Source: Candidatus Yonathbacteria bacterium RIFOXYD1_FULL_52_36
GTDB taxonomy: Bacteria > Patescibacteriota > Minisyncoccia > Phycocordibacterales > UBA1539_B
Reading direction: 5' to 3'
Assembly (NCBI GenBank): GCA_001823605.1
Contig: MHUZ01000021.1
Span: 1-27,907 of the forward strand
DNA length: 27,907 bases
Numbering within the stretch: the first letter of the stretch is position 1; every line of letters starts with the position of its first letter. Position numbers and translations under genes: made by a program. The notes below the pieces were generated by a model. That model saw only the letters and a list, made by a program, of their open reading frames with translations, was not told the origin of the DNA and did no database searches. This document shows positions 8,104 to 22,796 of the stretch, piece after piece.

Positions 8104-8175
8104 GGCGTGGTGGCGAAGTGGTAACGCTTCGGTCTGCAAAACCGACACGCGCGGGTTCGATTCCCGCCCACGCCT
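8104..8175 (+). tRNA. tRNA-Cys (GCA). No encoded CCA.
   Basis: Acceptor GGCGTGG pairs with CCACGCC. Anticodon stem TCGGT/ACCGA with loop CTGCAAA. T arm GCGGG-TTCGATT-CCCGC. Discriminator T. The following bases are CTA. Confidence 0.88.
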
Positions 8176-8203
8176 CTAGAAAAAGTGCTAGAATACTCAT
8201 CAC

Positions 8204-8286
8204 GCCGGGGTGATGAAATGGTAGACATAGGAGACTTAAAATCTCCAGGGCGCAAGCCCGTGTGGGTTCGAGTCCCACCCTCGGCA
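8204..8286 (+). tRNA. tRNA-Leu (TAA), type II. No encoded CCA.
   Basis: Acceptor GCCGGGG pairs with CCTCGGC. Anticodon stem GGAGA/TCTCC with loop CTTAAAA. Long variable arm GGGCGCAAGCCCGT. T arm GTGGG-TTCGAGT-CCCAC. Discriminator A. Confidence 0.88.
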
Positions 8287-8307
8287 CTAAAGTAAATCTA
8301 AAAAGTT

Positions 8308-10035: not shown

Positions 10036-10111
10036 TGGTCCGCCCGGTAGGAATCGAACCTACGACCGTTTGCTTAAGAGGCAACTGCTCTACCGACTGA
10101 GCTACGGGCGG
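10036..10111 (-). tRNA. tRNA-Lys (CTT) with genomically encoded CCA
   Basis: The reverse complement is CCGCCCG-TA-GCTCAGTCGGTAGAGC-A-GTTGC-CTCTTAA-GCAAA-CGGTC-GTAGG-TTCGATT-CCTAC-CGGGCGG-A-CCA. There is one non-Watson-Crick pair at positions 27:43. Confidence 0.82.
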
Positions 10112-10125
10112 ATATTCAACCCATA

Positions 10126-10386
10126 CTACCAGAGAGCGCCTTCTGCTTCAAGGCGTTTCCGTTTTTGTGCCGATCCCCTATTATACCCACCCACGGAACC
10201 ATCCGCTCGCACTACGCGATGGCACGGGATCGCCGGGTCGTAATTAGTGGTGAGGATATTCCCCACCGCGCGATACGCACGCGGACTTCCCGCGCGACGT
10301 GCCACTTCAGCATAGGTCATCGTCTTGCCTTTGGGAATCGTGCGGACCACGCTGAATACTTTGTCTCGAAATACAATCCTCTCCAT
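10126..10386 (-). CDS. Single-domain MGMT-family protein (methylated-DNA-protein-cysteine methyltransferase DNA-binding / acceptor domain only)
   Basis: The PCHRVV motif is IPCHRVVRADGSVGGY, followed by the helix-turn-helix TYAEVARRAGSPRAYRAVGN. The start was trimmed to ATG 10384-10386 (MERIVFRD...). The protein is 86 aa. Confidence 0.8.
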   Translation of the reverse strand: MERIVFRDKVFSVVRTIPKGKTMTYAEVARRAGSPRAYRAVGNILTTNYDPAIPCHRVVRADGSVGGYNRGSAQKRKRLEAEGALW

Positions 10387-10407
10387 TACACTGACTGTAC
10401 CACAACG

Positions 10408-10436
10408 TTGGTGATTCACTAAAAATGCGCTAGAAT
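10408..10436 (+). promoter_or_regulatory. Sigma70-like promoter for the tRNA-Leu pair
   Basis: TTGGTG, a 17-nt spacer and TAGAAT, located 42 nt upstream of tRNA-Leu(TAG). Confidence 0.45.
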
Positions 10437-10478
10437 CCTAGAACACCAAGAGGGATAGGTGCTGCGGTGAAACGAAGC

Positions 10479-10560
10479 GCCGAGGTGGCGAAATTGGTAT
10501 ACGCACTTGCCTTAGGAGCAAGCGGGGCAACCCATGGAGGTTCAAGTCCTCTCCTCGGCA
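10479..10560 (+). tRNA. tRNA-Leu (TAG), type II. No encoded CCA.
   Basis: Acceptor GCCGAGG pairs with CCTCGGC. Anticodon stem CTTGC/GCAAG with loop CTTAGGA. Long variable arm. T arm GGAGG-TTCAAGT-CCTCT. Discriminator A. Confidence 0.85.
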
Positions 10561-10577
10561 CAAAAAAGGAACCAAGC

Positions 10578-10662
10578 GGGCGTGTGGCGGAATTGGTATA
10601 CGCGTACGTCTCAGAAGCGTATGGAGTAATCCTTGGGAGTTCGAGTCTCCCCACGCCCACCA
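10578..10662 (+). tRNA. tRNA-Leu (CAG), type II, with encoded CCA
   Basis: Acceptor GGGCGTG pairs with CACGCCC. Anticodon stem TACGT/GCGTA with loop CTCAGAA. Variable arm TGGAGTAATCCTT. T arm GGGAG-TTCGAGT-CTCCC. The 3' end is A-CCA. Confidence 0.82.
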
Positions 10663-16155: not shown

Positions 16156-16704
16156 TTATCCGGTGTTCTTCTTCATAACAATACCATAATGGTGCGCACC
16201 GGCATCAAAGAGCGGTTTTTCATATCGAAACCGCTCGCCTTCAAAAATACGCCGTGCCTCATCGGCACGCACGAGCTGTCGTACGGTTGGTCCTGCGCCG
16301 CCAAACGAGCCTGACCAGTCGATCACGATCGCTTTACCGCCATTCTTGAGTACGCGCCACGCTTCCCGTGCAATACCGGCTCGATCCGGTGCCTGGAACA
16401 ATACGTTGGCAACTAGCACGAGATCGACGGACGCATTACGAAGCTTGGTTCCTCCTTCGCGTTCGATATCACCCCACACCACTTCCACATTCCCCTTGCG
16501 CGACTCGCGCGCTTTGAGGCTCAGTGTAGCAACAAGATCTTTTTGTACTTCAACCGCATAGACCTTGCCTGTGTCTCCCGCGGCTTCCGCAAGTGCCAGC
16601 GTGTACATTCCCGAGCCGGCACCAAAGTCCGCGACCTGCATTCCCTCCGTCACGGAAGCCTCCTTAACTACTTTTTTGGGATCAGAAAATTCACTCATTA
16701 TCAT
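16156..16704 (-). CDS. Class I SAM-dependent methyltransferase, small and soluble
   Basis: Motif I VADFGAGSGMYT. An acidic post-I residue (AVEV). Motifs II/III are VDLVLVANVLFQ ... LKNGGKAIVID. The first ATG at 16704 is embedded in the -10 element. A second ATG at 16698 is the probable leaderless start. Confidence 0.78.
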   Translation of the reverse strand: MIMSEFSDPKKVVKEASVTEGMQVADFGAGSGMYTLALAEAAGDTGKVYAVEVQKDLVATLSLKARESRKGNVEVVWGDIEREGGTKLRNASVDLVLVANVLFQAPDRAGIAREAWRVLKNGGKAIVIDWSGSFGGAGPTVRQLVRADEARRIFEGERFRYEKPLFDAGAHHYGIVMKKNTG

Positions 16705-20854: not shown

Positions 20855-20905
20855 CCCTAGGCCTGAACGAATCCAGCATCGACCCCGATGACTGGAAACC
20901 CAACA

Positions 20906-20938
20906 ACGCCCCGACACACGTCGGGGCGTCTTACTTTG
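20906..20938 (+). terminator. Intrinsic terminator T1 (copy 1 of a repeated hairpin)
   Basis: ACGCCCCGAC-ACAC-GTCGGGGCGT followed by CTTACTTTG. Confidence 0.7.
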
Positions 20939-20950
20939 TCCGCCGAGCAC

Positions 20951-20979
20951 TTGACATATCCTACATATCTGCTATACTA
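20951..20979 (+). promoter_or_regulatory. Near-consensus sigma70 promoter
   Basis: TTGACA, a 17-nt spacer (TATCCTACATATCTGC) and TATACT. A 33-codon ORF with a GGAG SD follows 39 nt downstream. Confidence 0.6.
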
Positions 20980-21017
20980 CTACTTGGATCAATTCGATCC
21001 TCACTGGAGAAATACCA

Positions 21018-21119
21018 ATGAAGACGCCCAGCACCTTCTTGAGTAGCCATATGATCAACATCACGGCCGACACCGGCGGCAGCGGTCATCCCGCCATTGG
21101 TCTGAACTACATCGCCTGA
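21018..21119 (+). CDS. Candidate small peptide of 33 aa (MKTPSTFLSSHMINITADTGGSGHPAIGLNYIA)
   Basis: A near-consensus promoter is upstream. A GGAG SD sits 9 nt upstream of the ATG. Terminator T2 lies about 85 nt downstream. Confidence 0.3.
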   Translation: MKTPSTFLSSHMINITADTGGSGHPAIGLNYIA

Positions 21120-21202
21120 ACCACGGCCGGCGCCGACGGGAACACATAAGTGTTCGCCCGCTTCGCCAGTGACATCCTTACCGGATGTCACGCAGCACCC
21201 GA

Positions 21203-21235
21203 CCACCCCCTGCCACTAAGGGGGTGGTTTTTTCT
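21203..21235 (+). terminator. Intrinsic terminator T2
   Basis: CCACCCCC-TGCCACTAA-GGGGGTGG followed by TTTTTTCTT. Confidence 0.75.
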
Positions 21236-21475
21236 TGCGCAAAAAGTTTTCCACAGACACGTGCCATTACCATCACTCCAAGCAAGCGCATGTGATATGC
21301 TTAAAGAGGAGTAGTTTGCGCTAGTCCTTTGGCTAGAGTCCGCGACAAAGGAGCTTTCCCATGAAAAGCCCTCCGCTGTTTAGCACTGCCTCACCCGCGT
21401 GCACCTTCCCGCACTAGGGCGACTGCCATGGCCCTTACAAAGAACCCTGGCTGCTTTTGCCAGCATCTACAACCA

Positions 21476-21506
21476 ACGCCCCGACATACGTCGGGGCGTT
21501 TTCTTG
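21476..21506 (+). terminator. Intrinsic terminator T3 (copy 2 of the repeated hairpin)
   Basis: ACGCCCCGAC-ATAC-GTCGGGGCGT followed by TTTCTTG. It matches T1 apart from one loop base, and both have CAACGCC immediately upstream. It is preceded by an 18-codon ORF (21361-21417) with a perfect AAAGGAG SD. Confidence 0.7.
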
Positions 21507-21680
21507 CCCGAAGACCCCCACCATGCTATAGTTTCCCCACCAAGCCGGCATGTTCGACTCGGTATTAATTGATAACCTTTAAGGGTAACCCCATTAAAGT
21601 GATTGCGCCGTTTAGATGCGCATGAACTTATGGAACCTTAAGGCGGAATGCCCCCGCCCTAGGCGGGCTTTTTTATTTTC
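21503..21680 (+). promoter_or_regulatory. rpsA leader: candidate promoter, two CCTT(T)AAGG palindromic boxes, and a terminator-like hairpin with a U-tract ending 1 nt before the start codon
   Basis: CTTGCC, an 18-nt spacer and TATAGT at 21503-21531. ACCTTTAAGG is at 21575-21584 and ACCTTAAGG at 21624-21632. The hairpin is CCCGC-CCTAG-GCGGG (21653-21667), followed by CTTTTTTATTTTC and then ATG 21681. Confidence 0.45.
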
Positions 21681-22796
21681 ATGACCAAACAAGAAACCAC
21701 AGAAGAAGTTGTCGTCGAAACGCTCATGCACGAGCTTTTGAAGCGCGTCCCCACTCCTCCCAAGCTTGGTGACCTCATTGAAGGCCCGGTCATATCAATC
21801 GACAAAGCGGCAGTCTACATTAACCTGAAGCCCTTCGGAACCGGCATCATTTTCGGCCGCGAGTACCTTCAGGCGCGCGATGTTTTGAAAAAGATCGCCA
21901 TCGGCGATACGATCAGCGCCCAGGTTGTGGACGCACACAACGAAGACGGCTACGTTGAGCTCTCGCTCCACGAGGCACGCCAGGCACTCATCTGGACCGA
22001 GGCAGAAGATGCGATCAAAAAGAAACTTGTCGTCGAGCTCCCGATCAAGGACGCCAACAAGGGTGGACTTATCCTCGAGTGGCAGGGCATCGCAGGATTC
22101 CTCCCGGCTTCACAACTCAAGCCCGAGCACTACCCGCGCGTTGAGGACGGCAGTAAGGATCGTATTTTGGAAGAGCTGAAGAAACTCATCGGCGAAAAAC
22201 TTACCGTCACCATCATCGGTGCTGACCAGAAAGAAGGAAAGCTTATTTTTTCCGAGAAAGATTCAGGACAGAAAGAGAAGCGCGAGATGGTTGAGAAGTA
22301 CGCCGTAGGCGACGAGCGCGACGGCACCGTGACCGGCATCGTTGACTTTGGCGTCTTCGTCAAGATCGAAGAAGGACTCGAGGGACTCGTCCACATCTCC
22401 GAGATGGACTGGGCACTCGTCGAGAATCCGCGCACACTCTACAAAGTAGGCGACAAAGTTCGCGTAAAGGTCATTGATGTAAAGGACGGCAAAGTGTCGC
22501 TCTCGATCAAGGCTCTCAAGGACAATCCGTGGACCGAAGCAAGCAAGAAATGGAAGAAGGGTGATGCAGTGACCGGCGTGGTAATCAAATTCAACCAGTA
22601 CGGCGCACTCGTTTCGATCGAGGAAGGCGTTGCAGGATTGGTTCATTTCTCCGAATTCGGAACGATGGACAAACTCCGCGCAGCACTCGAACTCGGCAAG
22701 ACCTACAGCTTCAAGATCACGCTCTTCGAGCCCAAGGATCAGAAGATGACACTCTCGTTTTCTCAGGCAAACACCGAAGGAGAAGAGGCGAAGTAG
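21681..22796 (+). CDS. rpsA: 30S ribosomal protein S1, four-S1-domain form
   Basis: Repeated S1 OB-fold motifs: G.V.G.V......FGVFV......GLVHISE. The protein is 371 aa. Confidence 0.9.
   Translation: MTKQETTEEVVVETLMHELLKRVPTPPKLGDLIEGPVISIDKAAVYINLKPFGTGIIFGREYLQARDVLKKIAIGDTISAQVVDAHNEDGYVELSLHEARQALIWTEAEDAIKKKLVVELPIKDANKGGLILEWQGIAGFLPASQLKPEHYPRVEDGSKDRILEELKKLIGEKLTVTIIGADQKEGKLIFSEKDSGQKEKREMVEKYAVGDERDGTVTGIVDFGVFVKIEEGLEGLVHISEMDWALVENPRTLYKVGDKVRVKVIDVKDGKVSLSIKALKDNPWTEASKKWKKGDAVTGVVIKFNQYGALVSIEEGVAGLVHFSEFGTMDKLRAALELGKTYSFKITLFEPKDQKMTLSFSQANTEGEEAK

Follow-up and report, generated by a model that had tools for sequence, protein, structure and literature searches.

A conserved structured leader of rpsA in Parcubacteria-group bacteria with a candidate terminator/antiterminator switch

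The rpsA gene, its leader and the hairpin within it

The window is a 27,907-nucleotide (nt) stretch of DNA from Candidatus Yonathbacteria bacterium RIFOXYD1_FULL_52_36 (contig MHUZ01000021.1, positions 1 to 27,907 of the forward strand), and the subject of this study is the predicted 5' leader of its rpsA-like gene, at 21539-21680. The gene and all leader features described below are on the plus strand. The gene lies at 21681-22796 and encodes 371 amino acids with four S1 domains (Pfam PF00575, 5.7e-41). The top NCBIfam matches of the product are models of the 30S ribosomal protein S1, every one of them under its curated cut-off. The ATG at 21681 is the likely start codon, as read from the sequence, because the N-terminal TEEVVVE of this S1 aligns with relatives whose open reading frames (ORFs) start just 3' of their own leaders.

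The leader runs for 142 nt, from a predicted transcription start at about A21539 to the base before the ATG. A sequence-only reading of this DNA had proposed a TATAGT promoter and a leader of about 150 nt, and the promoter proposal held up. The promoter (21504-21532) has a -35 element, TTGCCC, at 21504-09, a 17-nt spacer and an extended -10 element, TGcTATAGT, at 21524-32, in which TATAGT occupies 21527-32 with the TG upstream of it; a consensus scan gave it 9 of 12 consensus matches. The same TTGCCN-17-TATAGT arrangement stands 5' of the leader in five related loci (L041, L046, L051, L055 and L064). A separate terminator hairpin at 21474-21502 sits directly upstream of the promoter, which argues that the rpsA leader has a promoter of its own.

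At its 3' end the leader carries a terminator hairpin, CCCGCC-CUA-GGCGGG (21653-21667), which was identified in a terminator scan and has six G-C pairs, a 3-nt loop and an energy of -10.3 kcal/mol when taken alone. Downstream of the hairpin come a C, the U-run TTTTTTATTTT (21669-21679), another C and the ATG at 21681, so the tail ends 1 nt before the start codon, as had been noted. By sequence, the G+C-rich stem-loop followed by the U-run CUUUUUUAUUUU is what is expected of an intrinsic terminator, and termination itself is predicted. The terminator tail is also the whole translation initiation region of rpsA, which has no Shine-Dalgarno (SD) sequence: GGAG, GAGG and AGGA were sought within 30 nt before the ATG, and none was found outside the hairpin. 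This absence had been reported correctly, yet it is not distinctive for rpsA: of 23 further ORF starts that were examined in the window, 16 have no SD-like motif either.

Upstream of the terminator is a hairpin with an asymmetric internal loop. Its closing helix, P1, pairs CUUUAAGG (21577-21584) with CCUUAAGG (21636-21643) in every fold. Inside P1 is the internal loop J12, GUAACC (21585-21590), which holds a conserved (R)R-UAA-Y-C core and is unpaired in the folds. The inner hairpin P2 (21591-21633) is variable and has the base CCAU/AUGG and the apex GCGC...GCGC, and the strand that returns to P1, J21, is AA (21634-21635), placed by hand alignment against a family consensus of AAC, GA or NAC. 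The resulting 67-nt motif folds at -19.3 kcal/mol, with z = -3.0 against dinucleotide shuffles. Outside it, the minimum free energy (MFE) and centroid folds both have an outer helix, P0, between GGCAUGUUCG (21547-21556) and CGGAAUGCC (21644-21652). The conservation of P0 is weak; the related locus L081 has an analogous UGUUUG/CGGACA. Just 5' of P1 is the AU-rich element UAUUAAUUGAUAA (21563-21575), whose family consensus is approximately UUAUUAR and which is found 4-25 nt before P1 in most loci. The MFE fold of the leader, at -39.9 kcal/mol, has P0, P1, P2 and the terminator all formed together.

A 10-codon upstream ORF, MFDSVLIDNL, lies within the leader at 21550-21582 and extends into the 5' strand of P1. 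Attenuation through a leader peptide was considered for it and set aside: the ORF has no SD and is not conserved in the related loci L081 or L021, and it is probably fortuitous.

The sequence-only reading had described two palindromic CCTT(T)AAGG boxes, about 30 and 75 nt upstream. The boxes are there, as ACCTTTAAGG at 21575-21584, whose core is the 5' strand of P1, and ACCTTAAGG at 21635-21643, whose core is the 3' strand. The spacing was only rough, since the boxes stand about 97 and 38 nt from the ATG, and 69 and 10 nt from the terminator hairpin. As separate sites they did not survive comparison with relatives. The two boxes are the two strands of one helix, P1, which closes the hairpin, because the corresponding strands in relatives change sequence and yet stay mutually complementary. 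Strand pairs such as CUCACGGAG/CUCCAUGAG and UUUCGGG/CCCGAAA are individually not palindromic. It was also considered whether a dimeric transcription factor binds the palindromes as DNA operators. Each box in the window is a near-perfect palindrome, but the corresponding segments in relatives are neither palindromic nor conserved in sequence, the complementarity between strands is the signature of an RNA helix, and the boxes lie downstream of the predicted transcription start. DNA operators are contradicted by the comparative data and were rejected as extremely improbable.

Conservation of the leader across relatives

Searched with the S1 protein, species-representative genomes and metagenomes gave 80 loci each. 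Every named record with a retrieved S1 locus belongs to the Patescibacteria/Parcubacteria group, with S1 identities of 64-82%, and the lineages that share the leader include Kaiser-, Adler-, Yonath-, Zambryski-, Nomura-, Wolfe- and Lloydbacteria. Most of the upstream regions have the same layout: P1, (R)R-UAA-(C/U)-C, a P2 of variable length, AAC/GA/NAC and the 3' strand of P1. UAAAC, UAGCC and UAGUC occur as rarer variants of the core.

The covariation analysis that had been suggested for rpsA leaders was carried out on 41 loci, which were parsed by hand into a fixed-column alignment with the apexes of P2 trimmed and N used as filler. In this alignment 90.2% of the pairing cells are paired, against 54.3% in shuffles, and 187 cells are changed on both sides, against 59 in shuffles, a count that none of 500 shuffles reached. 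Each of the 11 pairs has changes in both partners. The alignment reaches a covariation score of 0.964, which drops to at most 0.24 once the 3' partners are slid by 1-3 columns. Across the 41 loci the U and the first A of J12 are invariant, the second A and one C are at least 90% conserved, and the four basal pairs of P2 are paired in 100% of loci while occurring as CG, UA, GC and AU. The interior of P2 ranges from 2 to 91 nt in the family.

The two closest comparisons show the same pattern on a small scale. In the closest relative, L081 (82% S1 identity), P1 is CUUUGAGG/CCUCAGAG where the window has CUUUAAGG/CCUUAAGG, which is a compensatory change, and the motif as a whole reads CUUUGAGG-AUAACC-CCGCC…GGCGG-AC-CCUCAGAG. 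The motif of L021 reads CUUUAAGG-CUAACC-…-AA-CCUUAAAG.

The registers of the hand alignment were chosen by the analyst and are biased towards the structure. Because such registers favour the structure, a test independent of the alignment was added, in the form of a strict descriptor: UAA[CU]C, an unbroken P1 of 6 or more pairs within 0-2 nt, a P2 of at least 4 pairs, and a J21 of 1-4 nt. Of 81 loci, 34 had a descriptor match in the 330 nt upstream of S1, compared with 0.051 per 330 nt elsewhere on both strands. Among unique metagenome loci that had not been used in its design, the descriptor matched 23 of 55, compared with 0.056 (binomial P = 5e-15). It also matches the window, at 21586, with a P1 of 8 bp and a P2 of 4 bp.

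Other approaches were less successful. A plain MAFFT alignment with RNAalifold on 19 leaders recovered the terminator stem alone, as the variable length of P2 breaks the alignment, and energy-weighted automatic parsing of helices picked spurious long pairings and was replaced by hand parsing and the strict descriptor. Three covariance models were built. R1, from 7 close seeds, recovered its seeds only. R2, from the trimmed 41-sequence alignment, gave 23 matches at E < 10 in 476 kb, of which 21 fell at the site upstream of rpsA. R3 was built with real loops and artificial end tags, and gave only 7 matches in the non-seed loci.

The models are weak for family members whose P2 is long. R2, which is insensitive to such a P2, missed the window's own copy, and the top rank of R3 in the window, 21577-21643 (10.9 bits, E = 0.25), is circular, the window having been a seed. 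The window's membership is carried by the parse, by the descriptor match at 21586 and by its closest relatives, L081 and L021. The comparative data are the main evidence that the structure exceeds chance. Overall, a covarying 5' untranslated structure in front of a ribosomal-protein gene recurs across species, as in autoregulatory leaders, the ORF in the window being S1-like and below the NCBIfam cut-offs. In the DNA examined the motif is restricted to the site upstream of rpsA. It is very likely that the region is a conserved, cis-acting structured leader of rpsA.

Expression platforms, the proposed switch and its ligand

Of 136 unique loci, 69 have a terminator-like hairpin that ends within 220 nt before S1, where 0.054 would be expected from the S1 coding strand. 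By a reading of positions, about 35 of the 136, roughly a quarter, have a terminator between the motif and the ATG, and its stem typically ends 9-18 nt before the ATG. The fusion of a terminator to the translation start, which had been pointed out for the window, is therefore a recurrent arrangement. In L011, L036, L023 and L157 the 3' strand of P1 directly precedes a U-run, which makes P1 itself the terminator stem. No terminator is present in a large clade (L014, L019, L025-27, L031, L037, L039, L075, L079 and others). In its members GCG/CGU lengthens P1 around a bulged C, the sequence ACAAAMCAAUAU-AUG comes next with no SD, and the extended P1 ends 10-14 nt before the SD-less AUG. One sensor is thus joined to several platforms, which argues for a cis-regulatory RNA and not an unrelated upstream gene, and which is a compact natural example of reuse.

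Two further elements were seen at the 5' side of these leaders. In L014, L025, L027, L031, L037, L039, L075 and L079 the UUAUUAR element forms the 3' strand of an additional 5' hairpin, AAUAAAG…CUUUAUU, which has a conserved stem and is placed some 20-60 nt before P1, downstream of the promoter. In one subclade (L041, L046, L051, L055, L064, L077, L147 and L149) the 5' end of the leader has an invariant CAUUACCAGUCGGA. Its CGGA may be able to pair with UCCGC, an invariant strand of the terminator; both segments are without variation.

It was asked whether the predicted transcript could be a free-standing small RNA gene, with the hairpin as its terminator and rpsA either leaderless or served by its own promoter. 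The promoter and a good terminator do delimit a unit of about 135 nt, other short promoter-terminator units lie in the same intergenic region, and some genes in the window appear leaderless. However, a search of 21640-21680 found no promoter-like site, and the 13 nt between the stem and the ATG have no -10-like hexamer in the right place. The motif is also directly 5' of rpsA in loci whose S1 is just 64-82% identical. In most of these no terminator separates the motif from the ATG, and there it must lie in the mRNA leader. A small RNA gene is therefore very improbable. A leaderless rpsA or an internal rpsA promoter was rejected, since the promoter scan gave no candidate, and the earlier assignment of the region to rpsA, as opposed to the upstream unit, stands.

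The alternative folds of the leader, which the sequence-only reading had proposed to predict, were then compared as a terminator and an antiterminator state. The candidate antiterminator 5' strand in the window is UAAGGCGG (21639-21646), made of the last 5 nt of the 3' strand of P1 and CGG, where the CGG begins the 3' strand of P0. It is complementary to CCGCCCUA (21654-61), which is most of the terminator 5' strand plus the loop. The duplex of 21639-46 with 21653-61 has a predicted energy of -10.8 kcal/mol (p = 0.01 against shuffles of the same segment). In L021 the duplex UAAAGCGG/CCGCUUUA forms 8 of 8 pairs at -11.4 kcal/mol, and the duplexes of L081 (AGAGCGG/CCGCUUU) and L002 come to -12.0 and -7.9 kcal/mol. 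In each of the four, the window, L021, L081 and L002, the duplex of the end of P1 and CGG with the terminator 5' strand has p <= 0.05. At the outer end of the duplex a G-C pair is replaced by A-U, the window having GGCGG/CCGCC and L021 and L081 having AGCGG/CCGCU.

The two states are close in energy, within 4 kcal/mol of each other in the window and in three relatives. In the window the terminator state is at -39.9 and the antiterminator state at -37.2 kcal/mol, and forcing the latter costs 2.7. The cost is also 2.7 in L021 (-30.8 against -28.1 kcal/mol). In L081 the antiterminator state is the MFE (-34.9 against -34.2 kcal/mol for the terminator), and in L002 an antiterminator-type MFE of -36.4 kcal/mol compares with -32.7 for the terminator state. 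Mutually exclusive folds with an antiterminator that overlaps P1, as in OFF riboswitches, were thus found computationally for the window, L021, L081 and L002. These predicted folds favour a terminator/antiterminator switch in the window, and the attenuation switch that had been suspected there is computationally plausible.

Our best reading, to which we give a probability of about 0.55, is that the leader is a feedback attenuator of the OFF type, in which a conserved sensor is coupled to the terminator. The sensor would be P1 (21577-84 with 21636-43), closing the asymmetric loop GUAACC opposite AA, followed by the variable P2. While P1 and the outer helix P0 are held closed, UAAGGCGG (21639-46) would be sequestered; P0 (21547-56 with 21644-52) also covers the CGG of the antiterminator strand. 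With that strand sequestered the terminator would form and transcription would end before rpsA, which is the OFF state. If P1 opens, UAAGGCGG would pair with CCGCCCUA (21654-61), the terminator would be blocked and the polymerase would enter rpsA, which is the ON state. On read-through transcripts, translation would start from the U-rich tail with no SD. P1 would most likely be kept closed by free S1, giving negative feedback like that of other ribosomal-protein leaders. The leader probably throttles S1 production in this way. A rule of closed P1 meaning OFF also fits the loci in which P1 is the terminator and those in which its 3' strand abuts the start region.

Several observations weigh against this attenuator. 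The hand-made alignment leans towards the structure, and the covariance models built from it are weak. The fold of the whole 142-nt leader is not outstanding against shuffles (z = -1.2). In 7 of the 18 loci tested no significant complement to the terminator 5' strand was found. In other loci the complement is located elsewhere: it is the 5' strand of P2 in L041, L064 and L051, whereas L053, L016, L063 and L070 have it in a GYCGGA element immediately 5' of P1. With the element on the 5' side, the closed motif could favour antitermination instead. Where transcription starts, whether it does terminate here, which way the switch works and what ligand it answers to are all inferred from sequence.

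The leader could also act without any ligand: it might attenuate partially and at a fixed level, stabilise the mRNA as a 5' structure or serve as a processing site, with the U-run serving as an S1-dependent loading site for SD-less translation. This would suit the MFE fold, in which motif and terminator coexist without conflict, and the many loci, a majority, that have no terminator between motif and ATG. Many genes of the window have no SD, so U/A-rich loading sites may be general. Yet invariant loop nucleotides between covarying helices over many candidate phyla point to specific recognition, and a static element needs neither the complementarity between the end of P1 and the terminator nor the near-equal fold energies in four relatives. 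A leader without a ligand is accordingly a rather poor prospect.

For the attenuator proposed above, S1 is the leading candidate ligand, though a tentative one. It is suggested by the location of the motif, which is only 5' of rpsA in the DNA examined, and by the precedent of gamma-proteobacteria, where autogenous repression by S1 is proven for an rpsA leader that is SD-less and AU-rich (PMC10931766). When a motif occurs upstream of one ribosomal-protein gene only, its ligand is usually taken to be the protein which that gene encodes (PMC7247131). To judge by their sequence, the conserved AU-rich segment at 21563-75 and the U-run next to the start codon resemble the single strands to which S1 binds.

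Other points speak against S1. It normally binds single-stranded AU-rich RNA with no sequence specificity, and we know of no case in which it reads a structured internal loop. No resemblance of the leader to an rRNA site was found, in a comparison limited to a general sequence of the 3' end of 16S rRNA, AAGGUAACCGUAGG. The similarity of the leader to AAGGGUAACCCC is lost in relatives, where P1 varies. Mimicry of the 16S 3' end or of helix 45 was rejected as unsupported, as P1 varies freely. Moreover, autorepression in E. coli requires domain 6 of S1 (PMC10931766), and the S1 of the window has four domains.

Two of these objections, the structured loop and the missing domain, would fall away if the same switch answered to something else that reports translational capacity, for example a small molecule, an alarmone, another ribosomal protein or S1-free 30S subunits. 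The motif would then be a riboswitch or the binding site of such a factor. A compact internal loop with an invariant U-A-A between freely covarying helices is typical of riboswitches, and so is one sensor with several different expression platforms. Against a ligand other than S1 are the sole occurrence of the motif upstream of rpsA and the usual inference of the encoded protein for such single-gene motifs, and against a metabolite in particular, no metabolic gene is associated. We regard a ligand other than S1 as unlikely. It is similarly a long shot that a new class of riboswitch or protein sensor, with the motif as its aptamer, governs S1 supply in the ultra-small Patescibacteria, either through a small-molecule or ribosome-status signal or through the first recognition of a structured internal loop by S1. 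The same sensor would then be seen in at least three platforms: a separate terminator, P1 as terminator, and translational occlusion.

Known systems and neighbouring elements

The sequence-only reading had compared the leader with the S1 operator of E. coli, and the comparison stands as a functional one. The operator of E. coli and other gamma-proteobacteria belongs to the same gene, has an SD-less U/A-rich start and a structured leader, and exerts the negative feedback that is expected here (PMC10931766). The window leader does have an SD-less start with AU-rich single strands, though this is not distinctive. By inspection no likeness of sequence or structure was seen, and the S1 of the window has four domains and no domain 6. 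The E. coli operator acts on translation only, through competition between free and 30S-bound S1, and has no terminator, whereas here a terminator is in the leader. It is also limited to some gamma-proteobacterial families and needs domain 6 (PMC10931766). Rfam 15 has no family for the E. coli cmk-rpsA intergenic leader and no S1 leader family.

Attenuation-type ribosomal-protein leaders are known for L20, L10, L13, L19 and L21 in Firmicutes and for the S10 leader of E. coli with L4. Like the leader described here, they are structured and covarying 5' leaders with an intrinsic terminator before the coding region, and a structure stabilised by the protein is expected to mean termination. Such leaders usually mimic the rRNA site of the protein, while no mimicry was found here, and we know of no defined rRNA site for S1. 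They are a different RNA family from the window leader, which has no Rfam match. With OFF riboswitches the leader shares a P1 3' strand that is also part of the antiterminator, folds that are close in energy, and a sensor with varied platforms; it differs in that the candidate sensor is a single hairpin with one internal loop and rpsA is the only associated gene.

The internal loop itself recalls a motif of internal loops, UAA/GAN, which has been described together with a UA_handle submotif (Lee, Gutell and Russell 2006, cited in PMC2615604). The possible resemblance is that UAA on one strand of the loop faces a short purine-rich strand. The strand opposite the nearly invariant UAA is GA in the clade without terminators, and AA or AAC in the window. 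The loop in the window is larger and asymmetric, at 6-8 nt versus 2-4 nt, and has AA, not GAN.

Searches of Rfam 15 gave nothing at gathering score for the window leader, with chance-level matches only at E <= 10, and nothing at E <= 0.5 for the leaders of 11 relatives. A survey of ribosomal leaders (PMC7247131) and a 50-genome survey of non-coding RNAs (PMC11109978) make no mention of rpsA or of these phyla, and a literature search on S1 or rpsA leaders in candidate phyla returned nothing relevant. The leader motif, which neither Rfam 15 nor the literature searched contains, is a new RNA family among ribosomal-protein leaders with a predicted terminator/antiterminator platform.

According to a review, feedback control of S1 has been characterised only in some gamma-proteobacteria (PMC10931766), and a covarying rpsA leader of Parcubacteria-group lineages is a concrete, testable handle on the homeostasis of ribosome components. 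The host organisms are uncultivated and have tiny genomes with few regulators, and SD sequences are used sparingly in this window. The leader would also be a useful marker RNA in the annotation of such genomes.

Other elements lie in the 1.2-kb gap upstream of rpsA. Terminator-type hairpins at 20904-20932 and 21474-21502 are 93% identical and 570 nt apart, with the sequence CAACGCCCCGACA[C/T]ACGTCGGGGCGT, and each has a promoter-like -35 box, CTTGAC or CTTGCC, a few bases downstream. Because each of the repeated hairpins precedes a -35 box, the gap can be described as a series of short promoter-terminator modules. One such unit, of about 250 nt (20951-21229), has a near-consensus promoter, TTGACA-16-TATACT with TG (11 of 12 matches), and ends at a strong terminator at 21201-21229. 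This unit holds a 33-amino-acid ORF with an SD at 21018-21119 (MKTPSTFLSSHMINITADTGGSGHPAIGLNYIA; no Pfam match), and an 18-codon ORF with the SD AAAGGAG is found at 21361-21417 (MKSPPLFSTASPACTFPH). The two ORFs begin similarly, with MK[ST]P..F, and may be paralogous small peptides.

Elsewhere in the window, a TATACT-type -10 element lies only 3-14 nt before several ORF starts, at 16704, 19299, 13527 and 3748 (minus strand), and these short distances suggest leaderless or very-short-leader mRNAs. Five complete tRNA genes, Cys-GCA, Leu-UAA, Lys-CUU, Leu-UAG and Leu-CAG, are located at 8104-8287 and 10036-10662, and a sixth, partial tRNA gene is cut by the start of the window.

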